Below are positions 27,220-54,105 of a DNA stretch of 64,000 bases, in pieces. Each line of letters begins with the position of its first letter. Position 1 is the stretch's first letter. The stretch lies in sequence record MW748999.1, one strand, 5' to 3'. This DNA is from Escherichia phage vB_EcoM_Skers. The position numbers and the translations under genes are program-made. The notes below the pieces were generated by a model. It did not search any database. It saw nothing but the letters and a program-made list of their open reading frames with translations, and was not told where the DNA came from.

Positions 27220-27375
27220 ACTTCACCTCATACATTCATAAACACAACAACGAATAGGACAGTAACAGTTATTAAAGCCATTTTCAACCCCATATTCATA
27301 ATATTTTCCTCATAAGGTAACGCCCTGTTGATGTGTGCCATTATAAGCCACTAAATCACACTGTCAAGCACTAAA

Positions 27376-39378: not shown

Positions 39379-39385
39379 TAAGCGA

Positions 39386-39416
39386 AAGGCGGGGATTATC
39401 CCCCGCCTTTTTATTT
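39386..39416 (+). terminator. strong rho-independent terminator after gene 54
   Basis: stem GGCGGGGAT/ATCCCCCGCC followed by TTTTTATTTT. Confidence 0.75.
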
Positions 39417-39899
39417 TGCTAAATCATTGCAATATTTTAGTGCCTTAGTTTGAAATTCTGCGCTGTTAAGTTCTTCATAACGGTCATAATCACCGTTTAA
39501 TGCTGCCTTTCTTGCTTCTTGCTCTATCTGCATGTCAGACATGATAATACAGCGATCCCGTGCTTTCATCTTCTCAAGTTGTATAGACTCTTCTTTCTGT
39601 TTGCGCAATTCTTCTTGACGCTTCTTTTCTTCTCGTGCTTTCTCTTCCCGCGCTTCTTTGATTGCATCCTTGAACATCTGCGTTTGTGGTGCTAAACCAA
39701 CTTTAACGCGATCCACGTCTCGACGTTCCATTTTAGAAATAAAGCATGATTCGATCTGACCATCACTTGCATATGCTGCTTTACATTCACGAAGCAAGAA
39801 AACCGGATCTGATTTAGCCTTCATCATAGCTTCCATGTTAGCACAACCATTAAGCATAGCCACTAAAGCCGCAAGACCAATTAGTTTAATCATTTTCAT
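39411..39899 (-). CDS. putative lipoprotein (162 aa) with signal peptide and lipobox
   Basis: N-terminus MKMIKLIGLAALVAMLNGC (lipobox L-N-G-C); Lys/Glu-rich helical middle; start overlaps stop of the upstream ADP-ribosyltransferase gene. Confidence 0.55.
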   Translation of the reverse strand: MKMIKLIGLAALVAMLNGCANMEAMMKAKSDPVFLLRECKAAYASDGQIESCFISKMERRDVDRVKVGLAPQTQMFKDAIKEAREEKAREEKKRQEELRKQKEESIQLEKMKARDRCIIMSDMQIEQEARKAALNGDYDRYEELNSAEFQTKALKYCNDLAK

Positions 39900-40720
39900 T
39901 TAGTCACCTCACCGAAAATTGTAAATTGTCTACGATTCTCATCGCCGAAAGATTCTACTACGTCGTTTACCTTGACGCAAGTCCCGCGCGGTAAAATTAC
40001 TTCACATTCGCAAGGATTCCATGCAATCGACCCAACAACAAAACCTTTATGATCTTTTACGTCAATTACCCATGATACATTACAAGAATGTTGCATCTTT
40101 CCGGTCATCGATTCATATCGATTCTCACAATAAAGGCTAGTGCTATTTGAAAGCCAGCCTCCAAAGATGATTGGTGTCATGCTGGTTGATACAAAGTTTT
40201 TAAAGGTAAATTCCTTATCTTCAATAATACGCTCTATTGTTTGAATGTCAAGATGTTGACCACGATAAAGAGTACCGTTTAACTTTTCGGTTTTATCCAT
40301 GACGCAATCCATCAAATCAACAATTTCGGATATCTCGTCGGTCATGTCTTCTTCCCCTAAGAGAGCACCATTTACCCATTCGTATTGTTCAGACACATAA
40401 TCACAGATTGCATTATATTCTGCTGGGGTTATGTTGTTATGTTTGTAATGTTTGAATACATTATCTCCAAAATCTTCGGAGTGTACTTCATACATCACAT
40501 TAATGATTTTCTTGATAAATCCATAATCTTGTGTCTCACGCTCAAGGAAGCGGATAACCTTCACATAATCATCAAAGTTAATCTGATCACTGATCATCTC
40601 AGTGATCATGTAACCATTAATCCCCTCAATGTCATATGTTTCGATGTAATTATCCATACGTTCCATCATTGATTCGCGTGATTCTTCTGAAAGACGAAAA
40701 TCCTGTAATTTCTTGAACAT
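39896..40720 (-). CDS. second ADP-ribosyltransferase (Alt/Mod-like paralog, 274 aa)
   Basis: R-S-E triad in order: TLYRGQ (Arg), FVSTSM (STS), CECEVILPRG (catalytic Glu), matching the same motifs in the adjacent full-length Alt. Confidence 0.7.
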   Translation of the reverse strand: MFKKLQDFRLSEESRESMMERMDNYIETYDIEGINGYMITEMISDQINFDDYVKVIRFLERETQDYGFIKKIINVMYEVHSEDFGDNVFKHYKHNNITPAEYNAICDYVSEQYEWVNGALLGEEDMTDEISEIVDLMDCVMDKTEKLNGTLYRGQHLDIQTIERIIEDKEFTFKNFVSTSMTPIIFGGWLSNSTSLYCENRYESMTGKMQHSCNVSWVIDVKDHKGFVVGSIAWNPCECEVILPRGTCVKVNDVVESFGDENRRQFTIFGEVTK

Positions 40721-40797
40721 TTTAAACCTCCCATATAACAGAAAACGGGGCTAGTATAAAACTAGTCCCCGTTTGAGTCAACCATTATTTCTTAAAA
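40721..40797 (-). promoter_or_regulatory. early promoter with embedded terminator hairpin (PeSL-like cassette) between alt and the ART paralog
   Basis: minus-strand reading TTGACT - 17 nt - TATACT; the spacer/-10 region forms hairpin CGGGGACTAGT/ACTAGCCCCG followed by TTTTCTG; GGGAGG SD before ATG. Confidence 0.6.
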
Positions 40798-42849
40798 TTA
40801 CATTTTAAATTTATCTGGCATTGCGTCTACAGATACCAGATCAGCGATAAGCTGACGTAGAGTTGCCTTATCTGCTTTCTTACGTTCGGTTTTAGCTTCG
40901 GTAATAAAGCTGGAGAAAGACAGGTCAGAAGCAGGTTTAATAACACCTTCACGGATGAATGCATCACCGTCAGCGATCATCTCGCCAGATTCTTGTAATG
41001 CTGCCAGTTCATTTTTGTTCATAATATGTGCCTCAATGTAATAAGTTTCTTGTGAATCCGTCGATGCCGTAGCACGAGTTACCGTATCAAAGGATAGCAC
41101 AACACCGCGAGGAAGTAAAATCTCGCATTCTTTGTAAGCAAATGCTTTGTTACCTACTGGCAATACAGGGATGTTTTCCGCGCCAGCAATGGAGAAAGCA
41201 ACATTAGCGCCACCTTCACCGCGAGAGCCAGCCATAGAATCAACACCAGCAACGGCACTAGCCACGTTTGCATTCCAGCCGCCAAAAATGTTAGGTGCAA
41301 GGGAAGTGCTCACATAGTTTTTAAAGTAAAACGCTTTTTGCTTACGTGCAGTTTCCCACATTTGCGAACGGAAGTCCATACCACGATACAGAATAGTACC
41401 CGGATCAAGTTTAACGCCATAGTTAGAGAAGGCATTATCCAGTGCATCGCACATCTTGACCAATTCTTCTGGATCTGCGATGCCGTCAAACTCTTCCAGC
41501 TTACGGTCGGTTAGGAAGTTGTTCATATTGATGTATGCTGCATCGGCATATTCGCTCAACACAAAACCTTCCGCGCCCGGCAGATCAAGATCAATATCTG
41601 CCATCATTTCACCCATGTTGCTAGCAATTGCTTCAAACATACCGGAAGCAACATTACGTAGGGCATCGGTTTTAATCTGTGTGATGTGACTACGCAACAT
41701 TTCAGCTTTTACATCTGCTGGCATAGACTGGTCTACTCGATCCATTGCTATGGCAGTGATCTTGTTTTCGAATACGTCCTCGCTCATGATTTCTTTTAAG
41801 CGTTTGATTGATGCTGCGATAACTTCCGCAGACAACGGATCATATTGATCCTGAACTTTTACCAGTTCGCTTACTGCGTATTTTGCATCGGCTTCGCTTT
41901 CAAAAATAGTACGCATGAAACCATAGCGAGTGATAATATCACTTGTCCAGTCATTCAGAGAACGAGCGGTTGAACGTTCTAAGGCTTGACGATCAATCAG
42001 AGTATTAAACTGTTTCTTAGGTTCTGCTTCGGTGATATCTTCTTCCGGTTTAAGATTAATTTTTTCTGGATGATTCACATAGTCGCTGTTATAGGTCGCT
42101 TGAGTTTTCAGCATTTCTTCTTTAGTCAAACGAGATTTAGCCGCTACGCGTTGTTCTGCTTCCGCGTTTCGTTCTTCTTCTGACACAAGACTAGCCGCAT
42201 ATGCCTCATCTTTAGTCAGAGATTCACCAGTAGCCTTAGATACCCAGCGATCACCTAAATCACTTTCTACTTTAGTGAACAAGGATTCATCAAGTTTAAT
42301 CCCTTTAATCTTATCAATCGCCATCCCGCGACGCTTGACAACAACTAAAGCGATCTTTTTGCTGGTCATTACTTCCTGCTGGAATACTTCAAACTTCGGT
42401 GTACGACGCACCAAACGCTCTATAACGCGCTTAACCAGTTCGGTCTTACCCTTCATACGGGATACGTTAAAACGGAACATAACAGCGTCTAATTGCGCTT
42501 TACGGGCTGTTTCCATAACCACATCAAAAGCACTTGCCATAACTGCAATCGGGTTATCGCCTAGACCATTTTTAAGCTGTACAATACGACCGCTTTTGTT
42601 CATTTCGCACAGTACAACATGTGCGGTCTTGTCACCCATACGAATGATTTTAGGTGTTTTGTTGGTGAAGTTACAAAGACGGACAATCACATCTTTATCG
42701 CGTGTCTGTACTGCAAAAAGCTGTTTAGGATTCTGCTTAGGCTTTAAGCACTGTACCGGAGCAATACTGCCAAAGTTTTCTTCCTCTTCCGTCAACAGCC
42801 ATTTCTCGAAAGATTCAATCATTAGATCGTCGATTTCTAAGTTAAACAT
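40798..42849 (-). CDS. alt: Alt ADP-ribosyltransferase (injected head protein)
   Basis: 683 aa (T4 Alt 682 aa); C-terminal ART motifs ILYRGM, YVSTSL, KECEILLPRG; located after gene 54 as in T4. Confidence 0.85.
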   Translation of the reverse strand: MFNLEIDDLMIESFEKWLLTEEEENFGSIAPVQCLKPKQNPKQLFAVQTRDKDVIVRLCNFTNKTPKIIRMGDKTAHVVLCEMNKSGRIVQLKNGLGDNPIAVMASAFDVVMETARKAQLDAVMFRFNVSRMKGKTELVKRVIERLVRRTPKFEVFQQEVMTSKKIALVVVKRRGMAIDKIKGIKLDESLFTKVESDLGDRWVSKATGESLTKDEAYAASLVSEEERNAEAEQRVAAKSRLTKEEMLKTQATYNSDYVNHPEKINLKPEEDITEAEPKKQFNTLIDRQALERSTARSLNDWTSDIITRYGFMRTIFESEADAKYAVSELVKVQDQYDPLSAEVIAASIKRLKEIMSEDVFENKITAIAMDRVDQSMPADVKAEMLRSHITQIKTDALRNVASGMFEAIASNMGEMMADIDLDLPGAEGFVLSEYADAAYINMNNFLTDRKLEEFDGIADPEELVKMCDALDNAFSNYGVKLDPGTILYRGMDFRSQMWETARKQKAFYFKNYVSTSLAPNIFGGWNANVASAVAGVDSMAGSRGEGGANVAFSIAGAENIPVLPVGNKAFAYKECEILLPRGVVLSFDTVTRATASTDSQETYYIEAHIMNKNELAALQESGEMIADGDAFIREGVIKPASDLSFSSFITEAKTERKKADKATLRQLIADLVSVDAMPDKFKM

Positions 42850-42884
42850 TTTATATCCTCTAGTTGATAACCTATAAACCTATA

Positions 42885-42910
42885 TTTATGAAAAAGGGGC
42901 TTAACGCCCC
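42885..42910 (-). terminator. rho-independent terminator upstream of alt (ends the early small-gene transcripts)
   Basis: minus-strand reading GGGGCGTTAAGCCCC followed by TTTTTC; a CATAAATA late-promoter-like octamer lies just downstream. Confidence 0.65.
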
Positions 42911-42915
42911 ATTTA

Positions 42916-43128
42916 TTATAATGCACCATCGAGCAATTGCTCTAAGGTGTATCCTGAATAGTCTTTTTCAATCAGGATATATTTTCCTACTCGTTTAATA
43001 CAACCACGCATTTCAACGTATTCTGCGTAGTTGATGGTACGAGTTGTTCCATCTTCCAGTAATGCAGTACCGATTTCGTTAATGCGGTCATAAGTTACGT
43101 CGGTAATGATGATTTCGATGTTAGCCAT
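42916..43128 (-). CDS. hypothetical protein (70 aa)
   Basis: ORF track; preceded by PeSL-like promoter cassette. Confidence 0.5.
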   Translation of the reverse strand: MANIEIIITDVTYDRINEIGTALLEDGTTRTINYAEYVEMRGCIKRVGKYILIEKDYSGYTLEQLLDGAL

Positions 43129-43199
43129 TTGATACTCCTTAGTAGTTCGTTTCGGTATGGGTGTATTATGATATACACCCTCTGTTATGTCAACAACTT
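43129..43199 (-). promoter_or_regulatory. PeSL-like early promoter cassette
   Basis: minus-strand TTGACA - 17 nt - CATAAT; hairpin GGGTGTAT/ATACACCC around -10; leader ends AAGGAGTATCAA-ATG. Confidence 0.6.
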
Positions 43200-43379
43200 T
43201 TAGAACATTTTTGAAATTAATTCTGCTTTGATTTCGCAGAGAACATCTAAAGATTTCTCGTCACCTGCTTTTGCGGCTTCTGCTTGCATTTTTGAAATGG
43301 CTTCAATGTCAGTGCAATTATAAGCCGCTTGAACTTTAGCGATTGCGATGATTGCCGATTCGATGGTTAAGTGTTTCAT
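43200..43379 (-). CDS. hypothetical small protein (about 59 aa)
   Basis: hand-translated (MKHLTIESAIIAIAKVQAAYNCTDIEAISKMQ...); flanked by PeSL cassettes on both sides; below track cutoff. Confidence 0.4.
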   Translation of the reverse strand: MKHLTIESAIIAIAKVQAAYNCTDIEAISKMQAEAAKAGDEKSLDVLCEIKAELISKMF

Positions 43380-43447
43380 GTTTGATTCTCCTTTCGTTTC
43401 GGTATGTGTGTATTATAGGGGATCGATGATCCCCTGTCAACAACTTT
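43380..43447 (-). promoter_or_regulatory. PeSL-like early promoter cassette
   Basis: minus-strand TTGACA - GGGGATCATCGATCCCC (palindromic 17-nt spacer) - TATAAT; leader ...GGAGAATCAAAC-ATG. Confidence 0.65.
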
Positions 43448-44002
43448 TTAGTTATTTTTTAATTGCTCATCTTGCAATAGGGCAATCACATGCTGGCGAT
43501 GCTCTTCCGATTGAGGCACACCGAAAAAGTTTGTTTTGTAGAAATACTCTAATCGGTCTTCTCGTGTGCTCTCTTCCATCATGATCGCTGGTAGTCCGAG
43601 ATTTCGGAAACGTCGCTTTTCTGCTGGAGTAAAATCACTGTAATACAACATAGAATCATCATTACCAGCAATGCTAAACTCATCCTTCATAAAGGAGAAT
43701 ATTGCGTTTAAACGCTGTTTACCGTCCACGATTTCGATCTCATAGCGAGAGCCATCATCAATCTTAGCCATTGCGATAGCACCAACCGGAAAATCATTAA
43801 TAAGGTTTTCGATAAACATACGTTTGTTTTCTGTGTCCCATACTAAAGGACGCTGATAATCTGGGTTCATGTTGATATAGCCATCTTCTAACCATGCATC
43901 ATAAACAGAGATGACAAAGTTTTTAGTATTGGTATAGTAACGGCGTTTAGGCGTTAAACGGTTCATGTTATAGTCTCCTGAATGGATCATCACGTAAATC
44001 AA
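43448..44002 (-). CDS. DUF262 / ParB-Srx-superfamily protein (DGxQR motif)
   Basis: motifs PDYQRPLVWDTENKRMFIENLINDFPVG and IVDGKQRLNAI match the DUF262/ParB-like N-terminal domain pattern; true start may be an internal Met near 43966. Confidence 0.6.
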   Translation of the reverse strand: MIYVMIHSGDYNMNRLTPKRRYYTNTKNFVISVYDAWLEDGYINMNPDYQRPLVWDTENKRMFIENLINDFPVGAIAMAKIDDGSRYEIEIVDGKQRLNAIFSFMKDEFSIAGNDDSMLYYSDFTPAEKRRFRNLGLPAIMMEESTREDRLEYFYKTNFFGVPQSEEHRQHVIALLQDEQLKNN

Positions 44003-44300
44003 TATCTTTTAAGAACTCCTCCCATGAATGGCGGATATTGTTCTTAATTCTCCAGATAAGAGCAGGGATTGAACGCTCTCCCATCTGGAAGTATGGATCA
44101 TATGATCCATATGCCCAATATGCTACTACAATTCCACAATCAGCGCAATAATATTCTATTTCACTTGCTGGCGACCAAAGTCCATCAATATGATCGGTGA
44201 TCTTGCTTTCGATGTTATGGCTATGACAATCAGGGCAACGGATGCAATGACCTTGTTTATCGTAATTTGACGTTAGAGAATACTTAAACAATCTCATCAT
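43968..44300 (-). CDS. hypothetical zinc-ribbon protein (110 aa)
   Basis: two CxxC pairs (CIRCPDC ... CADCG); co-oriented and overlapping neighbours. Confidence 0.5.
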   Translation of the reverse strand: MMRLFKYSLTSNYDKQGHCIRCPDCHSHNIESKITDHIDGLWSPASEIEYYCADCGIVVAYWAYGSYDPYFQMGERSIPALIWRIKNNIRHSWEEFLKDIDLRDDPFRRL

Positions 44301-45013
44301 AGATCCTTATTTGCTTCAAATACTGCCTTTGCGAATCCTCGCGGGGTAAGTGACCTTATAGTCTTTGTTTTCGTTCCTTTCCCGCCTAGCTTAGAATGCT
44401 GTTTACTGTACCCTTTATTAATCTGCAAAGGTTTCTTTTCTGGCATTATAAAGCCTTGTCCGGTCCATAAGCAAGTCTTTTTCGGGTACATATCACGGGC
44501 GGCAATATACTCAGGAAACGTAGGATGCTTATCATCTTCCGGCAAATAACCGCCATATTCCCACGGATGGAACATATAATCAGGCTTACGCCACATGCTA
44601 GAGATAACGCTTACAGGATTCTCTATCATGTAGGGAACTCCTAGCCATTCACCCAAATACGCGGTTATTTTGGCTGCCCTTACATCATGAACTTGAATCA
44701 ATGGTCCTTGTTCTCGTTTCTTTCGTTCAAAGTGCGCAGCGCCACTAACAGCTAAATTGGTGCACGGTGGGAATGCAAAGATAATATCCGGTTTCCCCCA
44801 TTCAAGGTCCATTGCTCTTTCCAGCCAGTTCAAATCAATCCAGGTGTTTACATAGGTAATGTTTGGATGTTCAAATCGGGTATTATACTTTTTGTATGTG
44901 CCGTGGTCGGCGTCATCCGCATTAAAGCAGACTACCTTATGACCTGCTTTAGCCCATTCTAGCCCCATTATCCCCGATCCGTCAAAGTTGCAGAATATTA
45001 ATTTTTGTTTCAT
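44297..45013 (-). CDS. truncated DNA C5-cytosine methyltransferase-like protein (238 aa; motifs I, IV, VI only)
   Basis: FCNFDGSG (motif I F-x-G-x-G-like), FPPCTNLAVSGA (motif IV Pro-Cys), MIENP (motif VI ENV-like); no recognisable target-recognition domain or motifs VIII-X. Confidence 0.55.
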   Translation of the reverse strand: MKQKLIFCNFDGSGIMGLEWAKAGHKVVCFNADDADHGTYKKYNTRFEHPNITYVNTWIDLNWLERAMDLEWGKPDIIFAFPPCTNLAVSGAAHFERKKREQGPLIQVHDVRAAKITAYLGEWLGVPYMIENPVSVISSMWRKPDYMFHPWEYGGYLPEDDKHPTFPEYIAARDMYPKKTCLWTGQGFIMPEKKPLQINKGYSKQHSKLGGKGTKTKTIRSLTPRGFAKAVFEANKDL

Positions 45014-45255
45014 ATACGCCCCTTTAATCCAACACAGATTTTAGAAGGTTCTTTGCCGTGCCACATTAAGTAAAGTCCGTTAATGCGGCCTTGTTTTGTA
45101 TATGATTCTTTTCTGATCTTCTTATAGTGTCGTGCTTCCTCAACCGATTGTTTAGAATACCAATCATAAAGGAAGAGGCACAAAGGCCAACCATTAGCGG
45201 CCTTAATGCAGTTATTAAGAAATTCCTTATTGCGTTTAATTAATTTTCTTTTCAC
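45010..45255 (-). CDS. hypothetical basic protein (81 aa)
   Basis: ORF track; start overlaps upstream gene stop. Confidence 0.45.
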   Translation of the reverse strand: MKRKLIKRNKEFLNNCIKAANGWPLCLFLYDWYSKQSVEEARHYKKIRKESYTKQGRINGLYLMWHGKEPSKICVGLKGRI

Positions 45256-45503
45256 GCTGCCCCCATTGGTTTGATAGTAACAGAATCTAAAAGACCTTTG
45301 TTAGCCAGTTCGCGGCAAGTTTTCAGATCCGCAACTTCCCAGCCAGCCGCAATCAGGTTATCAATGAGGCTGTTAGCAACTTCTTCGCTCATGAAAGAGC
45401 ACTGTTTGCCGATGGTGTAGCGTACACGCTGTAATTTCAGTTTACGGAAGCCTTTAACGTTCAGGTCTTTAGCGATTTTCTTTGCGGTTTCGATGTTAGC
45501 CAT
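45252..45503 (-). CDS. hypothetical protein (83 aa), first gene of a five-gene operon
   Basis: ORF track; directly downstream of a PeSL-like promoter cassette. Confidence 0.5.
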   Translation of the reverse strand: MANIETAKKIAKDLNVKGFRKLKLQRVRYTIGKQCSFMSEEVANSLIDNLIAAGWEVADLKTCRELANKGLLDSVTIKPMGAA

Positions 45504-45586
45504 TGTTTGATTCTCCTAAGTGGTATCTCGTCTTGATGGTTGTATTGTAGGGGAGTTATCCTCCCCTGTCAACACTTTTTATAAAA
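45504..45586 (-). promoter_or_regulatory. PeSL-like early promoter cassette
   Basis: minus-strand TTGACA - GGGGAGGATAACTCCCC (palindromic spacer) - TACAAT; leader ...TAGGAGAATCAAACA-ATG. Confidence 0.6.
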
Positions 45587-45754
45587 TCATTTGTTAATTT
45601 CTGGTGCGTTGCTAGGATAGTAACCTTCTTTAACTCCGAGGTATTTCGCAACCATCCCTACAATCTTCTGTGCTACTACAATGTCAAATTTCAGATAATC
45701 TTCGCCGTGGGTTTCAATGATATATGCTTCACATGCTGCTTTCGTCTCGAACAT
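45587..45754 (-). CDS. hypothetical small protein, copy A of duplicated 55-aa gene (MFETKAACEAY...)
   Basis: ORF track 45587..45802, start placed at internal Met directly after the PeSL leader; about 85 percent identical at protein level to hand-translated copy B. Confidence 0.55.
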   Translation of the reverse strand: MFETKAACEAYIIETHGEDYLKFDIVVAQKIVGMVAKYLGVKEGYYPSNAPEINK

Positions 45755-45829
45755 TTTGATTCTCCTATATCTCGTTGGTATGTGTGTAGTATAGGGGATC
45801 ACCGATCCCCGTCAACAACTTTTTTAAAA
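45755..45829 (-). promoter_or_regulatory. PeSL-like early promoter cassette
   Basis: minus-strand TTGACG - GGGATCGGTGATCCCC - TATACT; leader ACACACATACCAACGAGATATAGGAGAATCAAA-ATG. Confidence 0.65.
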
Positions 45830-46111
45830 TTATTCGTGATTAGTTTCGATGTTGTGCATTTTGCACCAGTTCAGCCAATCGCCCAGATCCTGATAGTTGA
45901 TGCTTTTATCTGCTGCCATCGTTTTTGTCTTGATACCCATATGTGCGTTATGAGTAAGCATTTTTACAGTGAACTCGATTTTATCGCCTTTAGCTTTAAC
46001 ATCAACCAGTTTGGTCCACTGGCTACCAGCGCCGCGAATGTTCATACCAACGATGTTTCCGATGTATGCTTCTTTGTTTTTCAGGATTTCGGTTGCTTTG
46101 ATGAATTTCAT
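45830..46111 (-). CDS. hypothetical protein (93 aa)
   Basis: ORF track; PeSL cassette immediately upstream. Confidence 0.5.
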   Translation of the reverse strand: MKFIKATEILKNKEAYIGNIVGMNIRGAGSQWTKLVDVKAKGDKIEFTVKMLTHNAHMGIKTKTMAADKSINYQDLGDWLNWCKMHNIETNHE

Positions 46112-46183
46112 TGTTTGATTCTCCAGTTCGTTTCGGTATGGGTGTATTATGCTATGTTCTTACTTTGGTGTCAACAACTTTTT
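46112..46183 (-). promoter_or_regulatory. PeSL-like early promoter cassette
   Basis: minus-strand TTGACA followed by spacer and CATAAT; leader CACCCATACCGAAACGAACTGGAGAATCAAACA-ATG. Confidence 0.6.
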
Positions 46184-46453
46184 TTAGATATTTTCAGAAA
46201 TAAATTTTAAAACTTGACGTAAATGTTTCTCATCTTTGATAGTCGCCGGAAGTTCTTCTTTTACTTCCTGTGCAAGATAGATATTTCCGTTCCAAGTGAA
46301 AGATCCGTCTTCGTTTACGCGATAGCTGAACATCCACTCGCAATCATTTTCGATTTCATATACACACAGAAGGGTGTAATCGTTAAAGCTATTGATTTCA
46401 AGGTCGAAGCCGTGGCGTTTTGCAAAGTTGGTAGTGGTTTTAGTCAGTGCCAT
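46184..46453 (-). CDS. hypothetical protein (89 aa)
   Basis: ORF track; PeSL cassette immediately upstream. Confidence 0.5.
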   Translation of the reverse strand: MALTKTTTNFAKRHGFDLEINSFNDYTLLCVYEIENDCEWMFSYRVNEDGSFTWNGNIYLAQEVKEELPATIKDEKHLRQVLKFISENI

Positions 46454-46530
46454 TGTTTGATTCTCCTAAGTGGTATCTCGTTTCGATGTGTGTATTATGC
46501 TATAGGCGTGATCTGGTGTCAACAACTTTT
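46454..46530 (-). promoter_or_regulatory. PeSL-like early promoter cassette
   Basis: minus-strand TTGACA - 17 nt - CATAAT; leader ...CGAAACGAGATACCACTTAGGAGAATCAAACA-ATG. Confidence 0.6.
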
Positions 46531-46546
46531 TTAATTTTTTGGAAAT

Positions 46547-46571
46547 AAAAAAAGCCGACACTAAGGTCGGC
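46547..46571 (-). terminator. rho-independent terminator after gene 46580..46891
   Basis: minus-strand GCCGAC-CTTAGT-GTCGGC followed by TTTTTTT. Confidence 0.7.
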
Positions 46572-46579
46572 TAATAAAA

Positions 46580-46891
46580 TCATTTAGACAAATAATCATT
46601 CTGTGCAATCCGGTCAGCATGTTCCGGCGTTACGTCAATTGCAATCACTTTAACGCGCGCTTTCTTGACTGAATTTTCTCGTAGCCAGTGCGTGTGAGCG
46701 TGCACATTTTTATATTTTGATGCTGATGCGGTTTCAAAGGTACGGATCGGACCAGGGTAATCAGCGTAAAGGATCTCTAGGTCATCGGTGATGTAAAAAT
46801 ATACATCATAATTACTGTTCTCTAGTTTAAGCAGAGACTTTCGGAACATTGGGAGATTTTCGCGGGTAAATTCAAAGATATTATCTTTCAT
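46580..46891 (-). CDS. H-x-H-W family small protein, member 1 (103 aa)
   Basis: shares YDVYFYITDDLEI and HAHTHW...VKVIAIDVTPEHAD motifs with five other ORFs in this region. Confidence 0.6.
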   Translation of the reverse strand: MKDNIFEFTRENLPMFRKSLLKLENSNYDVYFYITDDLEILYADYPGPIRTFETASASKYKNVHAHTHWLRENSVKKARVKVIAIDVTPEHADRIAQNDYLSK

Positions 46892-46923
46892 AGTATTATC
46901 CTCAATAGTTGGATGAAAAGGGG

Positions 46924-46946
46924 CGTTAACGCCCCCATATATTAAA
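46924..46946 (-). terminator. hairpin terminator overlapping the stop of gene 46942..47229
   Basis: minus-strand GGGGGCGTTAACGCCCC followed by TTTTCAT. Confidence 0.55.
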
Positions 46947-47229
46947 ACAGTCCTTCCTGTACACCGTAGTAGAGTTCATCGCTGATAATTTCATTAATGC
47001 GACGGTGTGCATATTCCTGATTTGCGAAGTTATCAGCAAGTTCTACTTTAGTTTCGCCGTCATGAGTCCATTTAGTGATAACTTTACCATCTGCAAATTT
47101 GAAGTTGAACTCTTTAGCTACCGCATCGCGTACCAGACGTGCAAACTTATTGTTGCGGATTGCATTGTCGGTTTCGTGTGCAGCGTGAGCGAATTTGTTA
47201 ACTTTCAGGGTGATAGTAATGTATGCCAT
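46942..47229 (-). CDS. hypothetical protein (95 aa)
   Basis: ORF track; PeSL cassette immediately upstream. Confidence 0.5.
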   Translation of the reverse strand: MAYITITLKVNKFAHAAHETDNAIRNNKFARLVRDAVAKEFNFKFADGKVITKWTHDGETKVELADNFANQEYAHRRINEIISDELYYGVQEGLF

Positions 47230-47310
47230 AATTTGATTCTCCTAGTTAGAAAGTGTATCTCGTTTCGATGGGTGTATTATGCTATACACCCGATCTTATG
47301 TCAACACTTT
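47230..47310 (-). promoter_or_regulatory. PeSL-like early promoter cassette
   Basis: minus-strand TTGACA - 17 nt - CATAAT, hairpin GGGTGTATAGCATAATACACCC enclosing the -10; leader ...CTAACTAGGAGAATCAAATT-ATG. Confidence 0.6.
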
Positions 47311-47589
47311 TTATAAAATAATTTTTTGATATTTTTCTATGATGTTCGTGTAAGTCACATCAACCGCTAGCACCGTTGCTTCGAATCCACCGTTTAGCCA
47401 ATGGCTATGATCATGATCGTGAAAGAAACCTAGACCAGTACGAAGACCTTCTTTATATTCTGCGCGTACATTCAGTTTGTCGTCGATAAACAGATAAAAC
47501 CATGAATTTTTACTAGGATTGATGATACAACCTTTCAGATTAGGGAGAATATCACGACTAAGAATAAACTTATCACCTACTTTGAACAT
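47311..47589 (-). CDS. H-x-H-W family small protein, member 2 (92 aa)
   Basis: motifs WFYLFIDDKLNV and HDHDHSHW...ATVLAVDVT. Confidence 0.6.
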   Translation of the reverse strand: MFKVGDKFILSRDILPNLKGCIINPSKNSWFYLFIDDKLNVRAEYKEGLRTGLGFFHDHDHSHWLNGGFEATVLAVDVTYTNIIEKYQKIIL

Positions 47590-47603
47590 AATATTTTCCT
47601 CAC

Positions 47604-47912
47604 TTATAAAGTTTGACCGTTGTTTTTCGCATAATGCTTAATGCGTGCTTGATCTGCTTCCGCTGGTGATAGATTCCATGCAACCACTACAACTTCTGAC
47701 GCATCATGATCATTATCACTTACCCAATGATTATGATTCATACAATTGTTTGCTATCGCGTGAGTAAATGATCTCATTACCGGAGACGTATAATCATAGT
47801 AACGGATTTTCAGATTTTCATCAACGTACAAGTAGATCGTATACGGCTTATATTCAGTAACCAGTAACAGACAGTTACGCAATTCTGGGAAAATCTTTTT
47901 AGTTAATTTCAT
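47604..47912 (-). CDS. H-x-H-W family small protein, member 3 (about 102 aa)
   Basis: ORF track 47604..47993; start placed at internal Met (MKLTKK) just after the upstream stop; motifs YTIYLYVDENLKI and MNHNHW...VVVVAWNLSPAEAD. Confidence 0.55.
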   Translation of the reverse strand: MKLTKKIFPELRNCLLLVTEYKPYTIYLYVDENLKIRYYDYTSPVMRSFTHAIANNCMNHNHWVSDNDHDASEVVVVAWNLSPAEADQARIKHYAKNNGQTL

Positions 47913-47913
47913 T

Positions 47914-48123
47914 TTATAATCCTCGGTCGCGGCTATAGTACACTGTACGCCATACAATTTCATGTTTCGTGTCGCTCCAGCACACGATCTCATTTACTCT
48001 TAAATCTTTGTTATCAACAAAAGATGAACATTGTGACGCTTCTTTCATCATTTTATCTGCTGTTTTCTCATCAAATACAGCACAGATTTCTTTATACACT
48101 CGATAATCTTTAAACTTGCTCAT
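47914..48123 (-). CDS. hypothetical small protein, MSKFKDY paralog 1 (about 69 aa)
   Basis: ORF track 47914..48135 with start at internal Met; N-terminus MSKFKDYRVYKEI...ADKMMKEASQCSSF parallels the adjacent paralog. Confidence 0.5.
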   Translation of the reverse strand: MSKFKDYRVYKEICAVFDEKTADKMMKEASQCSSFVDNKDLRVNEIVCWSDTKHEIVWRTVYYSRDRGL

Positions 48124-48125
48124 AA

Positions 48126-48335
48126 TTAACACCAATCAAGAGTTTTTGAAAACACATCTATCCATTGTTGAGTATATGCGGTTTCTTTCCATGACACAAT
48201 ACCAGTCGAATAATGGTTTTTGTTTCCAGAAAAGGACGGGCATTTTGATGCATCTTCCATCATCTTTTCGGCGAACTCTGGTGCGTATACTCGCAGGATC
48301 TGTTGATATGCTTTATAGTCTTTAAATTTGCTCAT
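48126..48335 (-). CDS. hypothetical small protein, MSKFKDY paralog 2 (69 aa)
   Basis: MSKFKDYKAYQQI...AEKMMEDASKCPSF; tandem with paralog 1. Confidence 0.5.
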   Translation of the reverse strand: MSKFKDYKAYQQILRVYAPEFAEKMMEDASKCPSFSGNKNHYSTGIVSWKETAYTQQWIDVFSKTLDWC

Positions 48336-48600
48336 AATCGTTAACTACCTTATCAGCTTCTTTTATTGTTTTTACATCAACTGCGATAATCCGTAAAGGT
48401 TCGTCGAAGGTCCACCAGTGGTCATGAATATCAGCTTGTGATTTATCACCAAAGGAATCACGAATATCATTTTTACATTTATAGCTAATGTGACCTTCAT
48501 AGTCAACATAAAGGTAATTATCGAAAATCGGCGTTTTTAAGATCATACCGAAAAATCTTTCTTTGTGTGTCTTATCCAGTGTTGCAGTAATTCGCATCAT
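48322..48600 (-). CDS. H-x-H-W family small protein, member 4 (92 aa)
   Basis: motifs NYLYVDYEGHI and HDHWW...RIIAVDVKTIKEAD. Confidence 0.6.
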   Translation of the reverse strand: MMRITATLDKTHKERFFGMILKTPIFDNYLYVDYEGHISYKCKNDIRDSFGDKSQADIHDHWWTFDEPLRIIAVDVKTIKEADKVVNDYEQI

Positions 48601-48612
48601 AATATATTCCTC

Positions 48613-48792
48613 TTAGAAAGGGATGGTCATTTCTTGAGCTTGTACATTCTCGTTAGGATTAAACTTCATCCAACCGATATTGTCTACCAGCATATGCACA
48701 TTTTTATCATATCCTACGTGAGTAGTCAACACTAAATGTGCTTTACCTTCAACGATGATTTCCATGTACTTCTGAACTTCGATAGCTTTCAT
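48613..48792 (-). CDS. hypothetical small protein (about 59 aa)
   Basis: hand-translated (MKAIEVQKYMEIIVEGKAHLVLTTHVGYDKNVHMLVDNIGWMKF...); directly downstream of a PeSL leader; below track cutoff. Confidence 0.4.
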   Translation of the reverse strand: MKAIEVQKYMEIIVEGKAHLVLTTHVGYDKNVHMLVDNIGWMKFNPNENVQAQEMTIPF

Positions 48793-48857
48793 TTTTGATT
48801 CTCCGTTTGTTGTCTTGATGGGAGTATATTACTACTCCCTTTAATCATTGTCAACTA
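48793..48857 (-). promoter_or_regulatory. PeSL-like early promoter cassette
   Basis: minus-strand TTGACA - 17 nt - TAATAT, hairpin GGGAGTAGTAATATACTCCC over -10; leader ...CAAACGGAGAATCAAAA-ATG. Confidence 0.6.
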
Positions 48858-49025
48858 TTATTTGTTAATTTCCGGTGCGTTGCTCGGATAGTAACCTTCT
48901 TTAACACCCAGATATTTCGCAACCATTCCGGTGATCTTCTGTGCTACTACGATATCGAATTTCAGGTAGTCTTCACCGTGGTTTGCTACAATGTATGCTT
49001 CGCATTCTGCTTTAGTCTGGAACAT
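48858..49025 (-). CDS. hypothetical small protein, copy B of duplicated 55-aa gene (MFQTKAECEAY...)
   Basis: hand-translated; protein about 85 percent identical to copy A at 45587..45754; below track cutoff. Confidence 0.5.
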   Translation of the reverse strand: MFQTKAECEAYIVANHGEDYLKFDIVVAQKITGMVAKYLGVKEGYYPSNAPEINK

Positions 49026-49096
49026 TTTTGATTCTCCTATATCTCGTTGGTATGTGTGTAGTATAGGGGATCACCGATCCCCTGTCAACAACTTTT
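49026..49096 (-). promoter_or_regulatory. PeSL-like early promoter cassette (near-identical to the one at 45755..45829)
   Basis: minus-strand TTGACA - GGGGATCGGTGATCCCC - TATACT; leader identical to the cassette upstream of copy A. Confidence 0.65.
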
Positions 49097-49399
49097 TTAT
49101 TCTTCGTCTTTATCTTTATATGCGTATTTCATAAATTTGTCTGCTACTTCATCGGCATGTTCCGATTCTACGTCGGATTCGAGAACAATAGCAAGATCGG
49201 TTTCGTCGTTTCCGTCATACCAATGATTATGGGTATCGTTTTCTTCGATATAGAATGAGTCATTTGGAGTTGGACGACAATATACATCTAAATTCTCATC
49301 GATGTAAAAGATCCAATCTTCGTAAAGAATAACCGTATTAGCCAGATTTTTATTGCCTTCAACGAAAGGTTCAGCTACAAATAGCTTAGTTTGTTCCAT
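49097..49399 (-). CDS. H-x-H-W family small protein, member 5 (about 100 aa)
   Basis: ORF track 49097..49456 with start at internal Met (MEQTKLF); motifs WIFYIDENLDV and THNHW...LAIVLESDVESEHAD. Confidence 0.55.
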   Translation of the reverse strand: MEQTKLFVAEPFVEGNKNLANTVILYEDWIFYIDENLDVYCRPTPNDSFYIEENDTHNHWYDGNDETDLAIVLESDVESEHADEVADKFMKYAYKDKDEE

Positions 49400-49415
49400 A
49401 ATATTTTCCTCAAAA

Positions 49416-49607
49416 TTATACAGCTTCGTAAACTTCCCAATGTTCAGCGCCAGCACGCTTAACGAAAAGGTTTTCTTTGATGTTATTCATAAACGTCTGG
49501 ATGGATTTAATGCGGTTGGAAGGTTTCCAGTCTTCGTTGGAATTGCGTCGATACATCATAACATTACCAGATCGCTTATATTCAGCAACCATTTTAAGAC
49601 CACACAT
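49416..49607 (-). CDS. hypothetical basic protein (63 aa)
   Basis: ORF track; own promoter-like element upstream. Confidence 0.45.
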   Translation of the reverse strand: MCGLKMVAEYKRSGNVMMYRRNSNEDWKPSNRIKSIQTFMNNIKENLFVKRAGAEHWEVYEAV

Positions 49608-49685
49608 AATATTATCCTCAATTTGTGGGAGAGTATTACCCTCCCGATTATTGTTATACTACATTACGCAAAATGGCGTGTCAAT
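49608..49685 (-). promoter_or_regulatory. sigma70-like promoter with 5'-leader stem-loop
   Basis: minus-strand TTGACA - 17 nt - TAGTAT overlapping the 3' end of the upstream gene, then hairpin GGGAG...CTCCC and GAGGATAATATT-ATG. Confidence 0.5.
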
Positions 49686-49966
49686 GCTTCTTTTGCTGTT
49701 CCGCTAAGATTCTCGATCTCTCCTGGCATAACATCAACCGCCAGAACTTCTACAACATCCTCTGATCCTAACCAGTGAGTATGACCTTTGTAGAACTTGA
49801 TATCCCATTTATCGCTATCGCTAGCCCACCACACATCACCGTCGATAAAGTTGATGTAAAGCACACTACGACACATTGAATTAATTACTTTCAATACTGC
49901 GCCTTTCATATCTTCCACGGTATGGTCTTCCATTTTGAAGACCTCACCTACCTGAACTTTTGCCAT
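49664..49966 (-). CDS. H-x-H-W family small protein, member 6 (100 aa)
   Basis: motifs VLYINFIDGDV and GHTHW...VVEVLAVDVMPGE. Confidence 0.55.
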   Translation of the reverse strand: MAKVQVGEVFKMEDHTVEDMKGAVLKVINSMCRSVLYINFIDGDVWWASDSDKWDIKFYKGHTHWLGSEDVVEVLAVDVMPGEIENLSGTAKEALTRHFA

Positions 49967-49983
49967 TTAGTCACCTCTCTTTA

Positions 49984-50163
49984 TTACATAACAATCACGC
50001 CAGCCGTTGAAAGTTGATGTTTCAACTGAGCATTTTCTGCTACTGTCAAATCAATGATTTCTTGTGACGCTGCAATCATATAGCCATTGGTGATATTGTT
50101 TTTCATCAGTTCAATGGTTTCTTCGTTGTAGCGGATTTTAGCGATGATTTCGTTGAAGTTCAT
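49984..50163 (-). CDS. hypothetical small protein (about 59 aa)
   Basis: ORF track 49984..50229 with start at internal Met (MNFNEI) directly after the PeSL leader. Confidence 0.45.
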   Translation of the reverse strand: MNFNEIIAKIRYNEETIELMKNNITNGYMIAASQEIIDLTVAENAQLKHQLSTAGVIVM

Positions 50164-50239
50164 GTTTGATTCTCCTAGTTCGTTTCGGTATGTGTGTAGT
50201 ATAGGGGATCGGTGATCCCCTGTCAACAACTTTTTTGAA
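50164..50239 (-). promoter_or_regulatory. PeSL-like early promoter cassette
   Basis: minus-strand TTGACA - GGGGATCACCGATCCCC - TATACT; leader ACACACATACCGAAACGAACTAGGAGAATCAAAC-ATG. Confidence 0.65.
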
Positions 50240-50716
50240 TTATTTTTCTTGATGCTCGCGCTCGTACTTTTCGAAATAAAATTCTACTGGCTGGTCGTGG
50301 ATTGACAGTAAGCCAAAGCGTTTAGCCGCTCGCAATCCCATATTGCGCTGAATGTACTTCTGGAAGTTCTCGCGTATACACTTACGCCAGTATTCTAAGC
50401 CCATACAGCTTTTATAAAGATTGCATTGCACACATGCCGGATTCATGTTATCAAGTATATCATGCTCCGGTTTATGCATTCCTACAACCTTATACTTCCA
50501 CGATCCATCATCATTACGGGCAATTCGTCCATTTTCATCATAGACTACCTTTGAGCGTCGCAATACTGGTTTGATGTGGTCTGCGTGCCAGCGATCCCCT
50601 AGTTCCTCGCCACAATAGGCACAACGTCCACCATATTTCATTTTCAGGATCTGGCGTTGCTCTTTCTTTGACAATTTTTTAGGTTTAGGGGCTTTCGCCC
50701 CTTCATTATCACACAT
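50240..50716 (-). CDS. HNH endonuclease (free-standing, homing-endonuclease-like)
   Basis: 158 aa; HNH core GRCAYCGEEL...WHADHIKPV...NMNPACVQCN (Cys pair, His-x-Asp-His, Asn, Cys pair); start overlaps DNA ligase stop. Confidence 0.75.
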   Translation of the reverse strand: MCDNEGAKAPKPKKLSKKEQRQILKMKYGGRCAYCGEELGDRWHADHIKPVLRRSKVVYDENGRIARNDDGSWKYKVVGMHKPEHDILDNMNPACVQCNLYKSCMGLEYWRKCIRENFQKYIQRNMGLRAAKRFGLLSIHDQPVEFYFEKYEREHQEK

Positions 50717-52208
50717 CGAATACCTCTTTTACTGTATTTGCAGTGGTCTTGTCGTAGCGAATACGTTTGATGATCGGGAGAAATAAAGAGAACTCTGGTT
50801 CATCTTCTTTACGTGATTTGCTGCGGATATACCCGTTGCATGTCATCTCAATGACTTTTCCAATCAGGTTATGACGGTCAGCCCATAACATTTCTCGGTC
50901 AAGTTCATTTCTACGATCGAACGGAATCACACGTTCAATACCATCATCTTTTTCGGTTGTAGTGTCGGTCAATCCCGATCCGGTGTTGGTCATCATTCGT
51001 CCGCACGCACTACGGACAGTAAAACCGCCTACCTTATTAGGATCTTTACTATGCGGATATACATCAACAATTTCCGCGTCGAAGTCAATCACTTCTTTAA
51101 ATTTAACCTGATCTTTACTACGGCGATCTTCAAATACACCATGTAAATTTTTAAGGATAATACCTTCTAAGCCCATGTTTACATAGCGATGATATACTTC
51201 GCGAGCTTCATCTATATTGTTAACTACAGTGTTTTCGATTATCTGAACACGAGGATCGTTAAGTTCTTCAACAATCTGTTTTAGTTCTTCGAATCGATCT
51301 TTATATTGCTTCGTTGCTTTCTCGTTTCCGTAATACACATCACGGTCGATAACATCCCAGACAGTGTAAACAATACATTGGGCTTCTTCTTTTGGAATAG
51401 TTCCTTTCAGTGATTTGTTGAGGATACCATTTCCGGTCTGACGATCTGCAACAACGGATTCTTTTACTGCTTCCGCTACTGGCGTTAATGGCATTTCCTC
51501 TTCTTCAAATATCCATGACAGAGTACCATCATAAACGCTTTCAACGAAGTTCTGCGCTGGTGTTTGCGAAAGGGTAGGCATATATACCAATTCCCCATCT
51601 AGAACAATTCCACGGCCTCGTAGACGCTCTAAAACAGCAAACAAATCATCCAGCCCCTGATAGGTATTACCTGAACGGGTATAGATTGCTAATGTTTCCC
51701 CGTCAATATCAGCCATCCCACGAGCGCCATCGCTTTTAAGTTGTGCATACGCCGGATACTTGATATTAGCAATAGTCTTATCAGAACATGACGATGCAAG
51801 GTGGCACGGTTGCTGAGGGATCAGTTTCTTCCATACCTTGTTTGCAGTGGTAGCGGAACAACCGCATTCCAGATCACGATTCAGGACCATCATTGCAACT
51901 TTAGCATCATCTTCTGACAAGCAAGTCAGAGTATCGGTAACTAGCTGTAATGCTGCATTACCAGTTACTTGACGCGTGGCAAGTTTATTTTTAAAGACCT
52001 GTAATGCACCGGATAAAGACAATACAGACGAATAACGCGATGGTTTATCGTATTTCTTTACGCCAAACGTAACCTGTTTGCAATATGCCAGATAAAAACA
52101 TTCTTTCAGTGTTTCATTGCTTGCAGATTCTTTCAGGATCTTTTCTTTCAGCGATGTTTTGTCTGTTGCTGCAAGCTGGTTAATGATATTAAGAATTGAC
52201 ATTTTCAC
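50709..52208 (-). CDS. 30: gp30 ATP-dependent DNA ligase
   Basis: 499 aa (T4 ligase 487 aa); motif I lysine in AQLKSDGARG (KxDG); located after alt region as in T4. Confidence 0.9.
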   Translation of the reverse strand: MKMSILNIINQLAATDKTSLKEKILKESASNETLKECFYLAYCKQVTFGVKKYDKPSRYSSVLSLSGALQVFKNKLATRQVTGNAALQLVTDTLTCLSEDDAKVAMMVLNRDLECGCSATTANKVWKKLIPQQPCHLASSCSDKTIANIKYPAYAQLKSDGARGMADIDGETLAIYTRSGNTYQGLDDLFAVLERLRGRGIVLDGELVYMPTLSQTPAQNFVESVYDGTLSWIFEEEEMPLTPVAEAVKESVVADRQTGNGILNKSLKGTIPKEEAQCIVYTVWDVIDRDVYYGNEKATKQYKDRFEELKQIVEELNDPRVQIIENTVVNNIDEAREVYHRYVNMGLEGIILKNLHGVFEDRRSKDQVKFKEVIDFDAEIVDVYPHSKDPNKVGGFTVRSACGRMMTNTGSGLTDTTTEKDDGIERVIPFDRRNELDREMLWADRHNLIGKVIEMTCNGYIRSKSRKEDEPEFSLFLPIIKRIRYDKTTANTVKEVFDV

Positions 52209-53591: not shown

Positions 53592-54084
53592 TACCCTTCA
53601 AATCAGTCAATAATGCTTTTGGAATACGCGTAACCGTAATGTCGGCTTTATCCAAAATATCAGCCCAATCACGCCCACCATTTCGGTCGTATGTATCGCA
53701 ATAGTATAGATGTTTAATACCACTGTTTGCAATTGCTTTAGCGCAATCTGGACACGGTGAAGCAGTACACCACATACTAGCGCCTTCAATCGATACACCG
53801 CTACGGGCAGCAAACAAAATAGCATTTAATTCAGCGTGGATCTCGTTTTTCTGTGACCATGCACTATGTTCTGGTCGTTTTTCTGGGATCATTTTACCGT
53901 CACCATCCAGCCAACCGCTTTTATGTGCATGACAGCTACAATTTACTTGCCCTGCTGGAGTGCCATTAAATCCAGTAGAAATGATTCGCCCGTCTTTTTC
54001 AATTAGTGCGCCTACCTTCCACGAAACACATTTAGAGTTCTTTGCGATTAGATAGGCGATCTGCATGTAAGTTTGTGACAACAT
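53578..54084 (-). CDS. cd: dCMP deaminase
   Basis: 168 aa; cytidine/deoxycytidylate deaminase zinc motifs HAELNAI and PCPDCAKAI. Confidence 0.9.
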   Translation of the reverse strand: MLSQTYMQIAYLIAKNSKCVSWKVGALIEKDGRIISTGFNGTPAGQVNCSCHAHKSGWLDGDGKMIPEKRPEHSAWSQKNEIHAELNAILFAARSGVSIEGASMWCTASPCPDCAKAIANSGIKHLYYCDTYDRNGGRDWADILDKADITVTRIPKALLTDLKGIDND

Positions 54085-54105
54085 AATATAATCCTCACAT
54101 ATTAA

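Follow-up and report, generated by a model that had tools for sequence, protein, structure and literature searches.

We analysed a stretch of 64,000 nucleotides from Escherichia phage vB_EcoM_Skers (sequence record MW748999.1), referred to here as the window, and focus on an array of eleven intergenic cassettes of one shared design, all on the minus strand, that lies between the alt gene (40798-42849) and the DNA ligase gene (50709-52208). These repeated units of 65-85 bases join a promoter, in most copies a stem-loop, and a ribosome site. From their alignment with published copies we consider it very probable that they are the promoter early stem-loop (PeSL) elements of a Krischvirus, orthologous to the copies in the hyperplastic region HPR3 of phages RB49 and phi1. 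The PeSL cassettes of this locus are already known, since the elements, their composition, their activity, and their proposed role in modular gene shuffling were described and partly tested in 2010 at the same locus in these sister phages (Arbiol et al., 2010, Genome Biol Evol 2:140; PMC2839356). By comparing 13 genomes instead of two, we find that the exchange products predicted by the published model are seen repeatedly in nature, which strengthens that model, and the comparison supports, at the level of sequence, homologous recombination from cassette to cassette. It also sets limits to the model, in that some insertions and deletions fall at junctions without a cassette or at a different short ribosome-site repeat.

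Identity and design of the cassette array

The window region is about 96% identical to the genomes of Krischvirus (RB49-like) phages that include FL37, ELT4, AV108, GEC-3S, phi1, RB49, and JSE. Its genes correspond one for one to open reading frames (ORFs) 182-211 of RB49 and 182-213 of phi1, alt being ORF184 and the gp30 ligase ORF213. By the definition drawn up for phi1 and RB49, a PeSL is a sigma70-consensus early promoter that is preceded by an AT-rich tract, carries a polyG/polyC stem-loop at one of five places, and ends in a Shine-Dalgarno sequence and ATG; about 52 were counted in each genome, and most of these lie in hyperplastic regions (Arbiol et al., 2010; PMC2839356). The experiments of that study used PeSL193/192, PeSL206/205, and PeSL211/210: the wild-type clone of PeSL206/205 gave a promoter activity of about 13,000 Miller units, the stem-loop of PeSL211/210 showed terminator/attenuator activity comparable to that of rrnB T1, and mini-circles carrying ORFan192 and ORFan210 were detected by inverse PCR both during infection and in virions, with ORFan192 placed in HPR3 among “eight PeSLs in an ~5-kb area” (PMC2839356). 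By ORF number, the tested PeSLs and the mini-circle ORFans all fall in the alt-ligase interval examined here, and the window cassette at 49026-49096 aligns with the reporter-tested PeSL206/205 of RB49 and phi1 as its ortholog. In addition, the GenBank record of GEC-3S has promoters with -35 and -10 signals annotated at ten cassette sites. The initial annotation of this region had identified the elements with the PeSL cassettes of phi1/RB49-type phages, and that identification proves right in a more literal sense than was supposed, the locus being the same and the elements orthologous.

The likeness to the RB49 and phi1 PeSLs extends to genus, locus, orthologous elements, composition, and association with ORFan insertions and deletions (PMC2839356), and the window differs in gene content only. 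It has the phi1-type single PeSL at the site of ORFan192, and it is missing ORFan210, which is present in both RB49 and phi1; a hybrid PeSL remains at that site, and AV108 and UPWr_E1 share this layout. A wider comparison is offered by the PeSLs and PmSLs of T4/PST and KVP40/nt-1 (Comeau, Arbiol and Krisch, 2014, Genome Biol Evol 6:1611; PMC4122927), with which the concept, the composite terminator/promoter motif, and the location in hyperplastic regions are shared, and which are likewise associated with gene differences between close relatives. Their consensus sequences are TTTACW-N17-TAYWAT and TTGYVH-N17-TAWWAT with the stem-loop just upstream of the promoter (PMC4122927), whereas the window elements have a near-perfect sigma70 consensus and Gn-loop-Cn stems, as in RB49 and phi1.

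Extraction and alignment of the copies bear out the claim that at least eleven minus-strand intergenic segments share one design: eleven are present, accompanied by an atypical twelfth. The order of parts is an A-rich tract, (GTTG)TTGACA, a 17-nucleotide (nt) spacer, a TATAAT-like -10, a C/A-rich leader, GGAGAATCAAA, and ATG. The alignment consensus reads AAAAAAGTTGTTGACA, 17-nt spacer, TATAAT, ACACCCAT, CGAAACGA, a variable stretch, GGAGAATCAAA, 0-3 nt, and ATG, and similarity thus extends past the -35 and -10 hexamers into the upstream tract, the leader, and GGAGAATCAAA. Upstream, most copies have TAA, four to seven A residues, and GTTG abutting TTGACA, which is the A/T-rich tract of a PeSL. 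Agreement of the promoters with the sigma70 consensus reaches at least 11 of 12 positions in eight cassettes and 10 of 12 in the other three; they are near-consensus, as had been noted, with TTGACG and a 16-nt spacer in 45758-45829. The Shine-Dalgarno sequence GGAG(A/T)ATCAA stands 6-9 nt before ATG in ten of the eleven copies, while 40721-40797 uses GGGAGG. Every copy lies between minus-strand ORFs of 55-172 amino acids that are hypothetical in the annotation of relatives, and each heads a unit of one to seven small early genes of unknown function. Two features were less uniform than first described. Folding gives a G/C hairpin in nine of the eleven copies, and the GC-rich inverted repeat does not hold for 46112-46183 and 46454-46540. 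The conserved leader is present as exact ACCGAAACGA in only four copies, the rest having CGAAACGA, CCAACGAGA, or CAAGACGA variants, and it is missing from 40721-40797.

The array stands well above chance. On the minus strand of 40700-50300, TTGACA-N16-18-TATAAT matching at 11 or more of 12 positions occurs at eight sites, against a mean of 0.27 and a maximum of 3 in 500 dinucleotide shuffles. With up to one mismatch, GGAGAATCAAA has 12 matches in the whole window against 1.85 expected, 11 of them on the minus strand and 10 in the alt-ligase region, and GTTGTTGACA has 19 against 5.5. When weak sigma70-like sites with at least 9 of 12 matching positions are counted in 39000-52000, the total of 42 is not above the 37.1 of shuffles, so the signal sits in the near-consensus class and in the shared flanks. 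A cassette profile run over the 64-kb window gave 14 matches, every one on the minus strand and intergenic; as the profile was built from these same sequences, all that can be concluded is that the window has no further match. A rigid fixed-spacing pattern linking -35, -10, and GGAG found no match because leader lengths vary, and Rfam at a permissive threshold gave no RNA family in 40000-51000, the one sub-threshold match being to MicX (22 bits against a gathering score of 75, E = 0.2).

Cassette junctions in related genomes and the proposed mechanism

The cassettes are direct repeats spaced at 0.2-2.5 kb, with 50-100 nt of mutual similarity, which makes them substrates for homologous recombination. 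We compared the alt-ligase interval of 13 Krischvirus genomes (L001-L013) by chaining their BLAST matches to the window. Together with the window they yielded 155 cassette hits with 111 distinct sequences, among which TTGACA occurs in 97, GGAG[A/T]ATCAA in 102, and an intra-promoter hairpin of 6 bp or more in 81. Copy number in the interval ranges from 6 (Cognac) to 13 (RB49 and MIZ6).

Sixteen distinct insertion or deletion (indel) events were found, and ten of them have every endpoint in cassettes, which is the association with indels described for PeSLs; the event list is our own reading of the chained matches, and the count is small and not corrected for phylogeny. The exchange products seen are hybrid cassettes and the loss of ORFan210, ORF186 (Cognac, phiS), ORF191 (UPWr_E1), ORF186-191 (MIZ4), ORF193-205 (Cognac), and ORF206-209/210 (phiS). 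The remaining cassette events concern genes gained or present in relatives. At the upstream edge of 45758-45829, ORF192 is inserted in RB49 and MIZ6 and a different gene in JSE. Variants of ORF195/196 are inserted with a 97-nt duplicated overlap at 46475-46571 in RB49, MIZ4, MIZ6, UPWr_E1, and GoldenSnicker. ORF210 is present with a 106-nt duplicated overlap at 50148-50253 in phi1, RB49, FL37, MIZ4, kaaroe, and MIZ6, and ORF211 belongs to the upstream edge of the same cassette. Cassettes occupy 11 of the 26 gene junctions, and five of nine deletions or replacements have both ends there, where 0.17 would be expected per event (P = 0.0096).

Six junctions, including the window's own, were read at the level of single bases, and all are chimeric or cassette-plus-gene hybrids. 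The 5' half of 50164-50239 (the ORF212 stop codon and TAATTCAAAAAAGTTGTTGACA) is that of the PeSL before ORFan210 in phi1, and its leader ACCGAAACGAACTAGGAGAATCAA is that of the PeSL after ORFan210; judged by these two halves, it is the genomic product to be expected from excision of ORFan210. At the MIZ4 junction (193/185) the 5' half of PeSL193/191 is joined to the leader of PeSL186/185, at the UPWr_E1 junction (193/190) PeSL193/191 is joined to the leader of PeSL191/190, and at the Cognac junction (187/185) PeSL187/186 is joined to the leader of PeSL186/185. The phiS junction (212/205) consists of the entire PeSL212/210 leader and ORF205, with the crossover in GGAGAATCAAAAATG, and Cognac also carries a mosaic ORF191/205 gene behind PeSL206/205. 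We regard these junction sequences as stronger evidence for cassette recombination than the event counts, and they lend support to the initial suggestion that recombination here is mediated by the cassettes. Furthermore, the crossover positions vary between events, which fits homologous exchange and argues against a recombinase acting at a fixed site.

Based on the genome comparison and the insights provided by the published experiments, we put forward a mechanism in which each cassette would serve both expression and exchange. Its foundation at this locus is the sequence itself, namely the design, its excess over chance, the orthology to published elements, and the hybrid junctions in natural genomes, while promoter activity, terminator activity, and mini-circle formation are taken by analogy from the RB49 and phi1 literature (PMC2839356). 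We propose that the near-consensus promoter is used by host sigma70 RNA polymerase, presumably immediately after infection, and that in most copies the hairpin, when present in read-through RNA, would terminate or attenuate transcription of the preceding unit. The short, G-poor leader ends in the fixed ribosome site GGAGAATCAAA just before ATG and would supply a strong ribosome site to the first gene. The cassettes would then recombine with one another, so that small genes lying between them are deleted, duplicated, or inserted and a hybrid yet functional cassette is left behind, probably through homologous exchange. Our confidence in these functional steps is somewhat lower than in the identity of the elements.

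Several observations weigh against this interpretation. Of the 16 indel events, six are at cassette-free gene junctions: they include an insertion between ORF187 and ORF188 in kaaroe, the loss or replacement of ORF189.1 in JSE, UPWr_E1, and phiS, the replacement of ORF199-201 in JSE, and, in UPWr_E1, the loss of ORF207 and an insertion between ORF208 and ORF209. Insertions are found at cassette junctions in five of seven cases, which is not a significant enrichment (P = 0.12). Most of the intergenic DNA consists of cassettes, so the association could in part arise from selection for junctions that are viable. On the functional side, promoter and terminator activity at this locus is extrapolated from the three orthologous elements tested in RB49 and phi1, and a literature search for transcript mapping in Krischvirus returned nothing relevant. 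Two of the eleven cassettes have no promoter hairpin, 46112-46183 and 46454-46540, the latter having a separate upstream terminator only. The spacer-type hairpins end in TATACTAC with no T-run and were not called by an intrinsic-terminator scan, so their role as terminators rests on one published reporter test.

These points lead to a different emphasis, in which the cassettes would simply be strong promoters for early genes with an optimised start of translation, whose likeness is maintained by selection for expression, and would be neither mobile nor recombinogenic in a special way. The clustering of indels would then reflect survivorship, viable phage resulting only from intergenic junctions at which a promoter and a ribosome site are retained, and not a higher rate of exchange at the cassettes. 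The cassette-free indels and the lack of significant enrichment among insertions speak for it, as does the fact that UPWr_E1 is without ORF207 and has its junction exactly in a second translation-start motif, GAGGAWWATAYTATG; this motif too can therefore act as a recombination repeat, which would mean that any repeat suffices. In the same direction, a scan of IMG/VR for the exact spacer-hairpin pattern TTGACAGGGGATCNNNNGATCCCCTATA returned a single contig, which at 164,706 bp is as large as a Krischvirus genome, and so gave no evidence of spread beyond the genus with this exact and narrow pattern. We nevertheless think survivorship unlikely as the main explanation. Each cassette at a junction is a precise hybrid whose crossover falls within the 50-100 nt of shared sequence, two-ended cassette deletions exceed the boundary-based expectation given above, and circular excision products were found by inverse PCR in infection and in virions (PMC2839356). 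It should be noted that the two explanations differ in emphasis only, as both involve homologous exchange at repeats.

A mechanistically distinct possibility is that the G/C palindromes GGGGATCnnnGATCCCC are sites for a site-specific recombinase or nuclease, similar to integron attC sites, with the neighbouring HNH protein ORF212 as a candidate enzyme. Its gene (50240-50716) does adjoin the array, one RB49 crossover has been mapped in the hairpin loop (PMC2839356), and both loop orientations of the hairpin are found at orthologous sites. However, the published crossovers are scattered over the AT-rich tract, the loop, the interval from -10 to the ribosome site, and that from -10 to ATG (PMC2839356). 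In the genomes compared here the phiS crossover is at GGAGAATCAAAAATG, and those of MIZ4, UPWr_E1, and Cognac lie between the hairpin or -10 and the leader. Cassettes lacking a hairpin also act as junctions (46475-46571), and a Pfam scan of ten proteins in and around the interval found no integrase or recombinase domain. Given the variable crossover positions and the lack of a recombinase domain in the ten proteins scanned, we reject attC-like site-specific recombination as highly improbable, and homologous exchange between cassettes is the mechanism that we retain.

Individual cassettes, their hairpins, and the ribosome site

The hairpin fills the spacer in five cassettes, four of them of the GGGGATCnnnGATCCCC type (50164-50239, 49026-49096, 45758-45829, and 43380-43447) and the fifth, at 45504-45586, with GGGGAGGATAACTCCCC; it encloses the -10 in four others (43129-43199, 47230-47310, 48793-48857, and 40721-40797). 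In every cassette with a hairpin, these positions place it ahead of the point where transcription from the cassette's own promoter is expected to begin, so that it would be transcribed only in RNA arriving from upstream. Compared with rho-independent terminators, a G/C stem followed by a T-run is present at 40721-40797 and at the separate terminators 42896-42910, 46920-46936, and 46553-46572, and the spacer PeSL hairpins differ in their TATACTAC tail; for want of a T-run, canonical terminator function for the spacer hairpins is unsupported by sequence.

Starting at the alt end, the cassette between alt and ORF183 (40721-40797) has TTGACT-17-TATACT with the -10 inside an 11-bp stem with one bulge and uses its own ribosome site GGGAGG. 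With 49-59% identity to the others and no conserved leader, it diverges more than any other copy, and GEC-3S carries an annotated promoter at the orthologous site. The stem (centroid structure -20.6 kcal/mol) is followed by UUUUCUGUU, also written TTTTCTGTT, and the bulged stem, the UUUUCUGUU tract, and the enclosed TATACT are consistent with the earlier proposal that this element may double as the alt terminator and the promoter of the next gene. PeSL186/185 (43129-43199) has TTGACA-17-CATAAT, the stem GGGTGTAT...ATACACCC around the -10, and the leader ACCGAAACGA with GGAGTATCAAATG; it is a recombination endpoint in MIZ4, Cognac, and phiS. PeSL187/186 (43380-43447), at which the deletion of ORF186 in Cognac and phiS has an endpoint, has a perfect TTGACA-17-TATAAT (12 of 12) with the spacer filled by GGGGATCATCGATCCCC and the leader ACCGAAACGA with GGAGAATCAAACATG. 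PeSL191/190 (45504-45586), with TTGACA-17-TACAAT, GGGGAGGATAACTCCCC in the spacer, and a fold z-score of -4.35, is an endpoint of the ORF191 deletion in UPWr_E1.

PeSL193/191 (45758-45829), which represents the single-PeSL, phi1-type state of the ORFan192 site, has TTGACG-16-TATACT and the spacer hairpin GGGGATCGGTGATCCCC, its 16-nt spacer being attributable to a 1-nt deletion. PeSL206/205 (49026-49096), a deletion endpoint in phiS and Cognac, has TTGACA-17-TATACT and the same hairpin GGGGATCGGTGATCCCC. These two copies are identical at 64 of 65 aligned positions. They had been grouped with 50164-50239 as three nearly identical copies; the pair stands, and the third does not belong with it, since 50164-50239 is nearest to 43380-43447 (0.94) and reaches only 0.83-0.89 against the pair. 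Each member of the pair precedes one of two duplicated genes, ORF191 (45587-45757, minus strand) and ORF205 (48858-49025, minus strand), paralogs whose proteins are 89% identical and whose gene DNA is about 84% identical, in agreement with the description of cassettes flanking duplicated genes. The near identity of the cassettes ahead of these genes indicates that the duplicated unit is the cassette plus the gene, with the cassette kept more uniform.

The cassette between ORF194 and ORF193 (46112-46183) is a promoter-only form with TTGACA-17-CATAAT, the leader ACCGAAACGA, GGAGAATCAAA, and no stem-loop (minimum free energy -3.2 kcal/mol, z +0.82). Between ORF197 and ORF194, the segment 46454-46579 combines a terminator and a cassette: the cassette (46454-46540) has TTGACA-17-CATAAT and GGAGAATCAAA, and a canonical terminator lies upstream of it at 46553-46572 (AGCCGAC...GTCGGC followed by T7). 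PeSL199/198 (47230-47310) has TTGACA-17-CATAAT and the stem GGGTGTAT...ATACACCC around the -10 (z -3.69), and PeSL205/204 (48793-48857) has TTGACA-17-TAATAT and the stem GGGAGTA...TACTCCC around the -10 (z -4.34). The atypical twelfth element, between ORF208 and ORF207 (49608-49663), has a weak -10 (TAGTAT/TATAAC), the stem GGGAGGGTAATACTCTCCC after the -10 (z -2.18), its TTGACA (49684) inside the end of ORF208, and a ribosome site of the GAGGATAATATTATG class; it corresponds to the subclass of PeSL with the stem-loop downstream of -10 (PMC2839356). The chimeric PeSL212/209 (50164-50239) described above completes the array on the ligase side. All of these elements are on the minus strand.

Two forms of the spacer hairpin occur, GGGGATCGGTGATCCCC and GGGGATCACCGATCCCC, each the exact reverse complement of the other, as seen from window copies 49026-49096 and 45758-45829 compared with 50164-50239 and with relatives L003 (13528-13622) and L006 (11177-11281). 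Opposite forms stand at orthologous sites, GGT in the window and ACC in phi1 at 206/205, and ACC in the window and GGT in AV108 at 212/209. The cause could be a flip of the loop, through template switching or a small inversion, or else an exchange of copies from one cassette to another.

The only new lead concerns GGAGAATCAAA, which may be more than a ribosome site. We hypothesize that it is also a target of the phage endoribonuclease RegB acting with ribosomal protein S1, so that the mRNA of the first gene would be inactivated soon after infection. The early genes of T4 have strong RegB/S1 sites with the consensus GG*AGRAYARAA in their intergenic regions (Uzan and Miller, 2010; PMC3014915). 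GGAGAATCAAA agrees with GGAGRAYARAA at 10 of 11 positions in ten minus-strand copies, and GGAGAATCAAA itself is present unchanged in nine of the eleven cassettes. The leader upstream differs between copies and the distance to ATG ranges over 3 nt, whereas the 11-mer is invariant. GAGG-type sites that lack GGAG serve the internal genes of the units. The likeness to T4 sites lies in the intergenic position, the Shine-Dalgarno of early genes, and GGAG with an A-rich tract, and amounts to a resemblance. Against this, the one mismatch (C for A) falls on a consensus position, not every GGAG site is cut in T4 (PMC3014915), the 11-mer could be invariant through common descent and through copies exchanged among cassettes, and regB was located neither in the window nor in the relatives. 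In favour of the idea, a diverged regB is present in RB49 according to the literature (PMC3014915). RegB is mentioned in neither PeSL paper (PMC2839356, PMC4122927). We hold a RegB role to be conceivable and on balance doubtful, a lead only. If it is true, a PeSL would be a module with three functions, starting transcription, stopping upstream transcription, and setting a time limit on translation of the first gene, and internal genes with GAGG-type sites would escape the RegB switch.

The second translation-start motif, GAGGAWWATAYTATG, has eight exact occurrences against 0 expected, all on the minus strand (2162-2176, 27297-27311, 46889-46903, 47587-47601, 48598-48612, 49397-49411, 49605-49619, and 54082-54096), and is used by internal genes of early units.

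Paralogs, neighbouring genes, and related elements in the window

Largely, the hyperplastic region is made of paralogs. A family of about 100 amino acids with an H-x-H-W motif comprises ORF197 (46580-46891), ORF199 (47311-47589), ORF200 (47604-47912), ORF206 (49097-49402), and ORF208 (49664-49966), and ORF201 (47914-48120) and ORF202 (48126-48335) are tandem paralogs with 43% identity; neither the family nor the tandem pair has a Pfam match. On the far side of alt, ORF183 (39896-40720, minus strand) is a shorter paralog of the C-terminal ADP-ribosyltransferase domain of Alt (37% identity over 109 amino acids; Pfam ADPrib_exo_Tox) with a cassette of its own.

The single cassette at 45504-45586 heads a five-gene unit on the minus strand (43448-45503), the ORF190-ORF187 operon, which includes a methyltransferase and a GmrSD_N protein. 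The latter is ORF187, a GmrSD_N/DUF262 protein, and ORF188 has a weak zinc-ribbon match below the Pfam cut-off. ORF189 is a DNA (cytosine) methyltransferase according to the annotation of relatives, and about 175 nt of it are about 80% identical to methyltransferase genes of 46-51-kb Salmonella phages, a similarity that suggests horizontal acquisition. At the other end of the array, ORF212 (50240-50716, minus strand), with its HNH endonuclease motif, is directly upstream of the first cassette and overlaps the end of the ligase gene. In relatives it occurs either in the 477-nt form seen here or in a 474-nt form followed by ORF211.

Three cassettes of the same family lie outside the array, again on the minus strand. 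Two are in the ORFan cluster between denA and nrdB (58020-58104 and 58306-58385), where phi1 has an additional 150-nt ORF226 that is absent from the window. The third, at nrdA/ORF233 (60880-60955), has TTGACG-17-TATAAT, CGGGGAGAAATCCCCG in the spacer, and the ribosome site GAGGATTTTATTATG. Elsewhere in the window, perfect TTGACA-16-TATAAT promoters that the cassette profile missed at E below 1e-3 occur at 12771 (plus strand), 27367 (minus strand), 26802 (minus strand), and 28937 (plus strand), and those at 12771 and 27367 have a ACACACAT-like start region.

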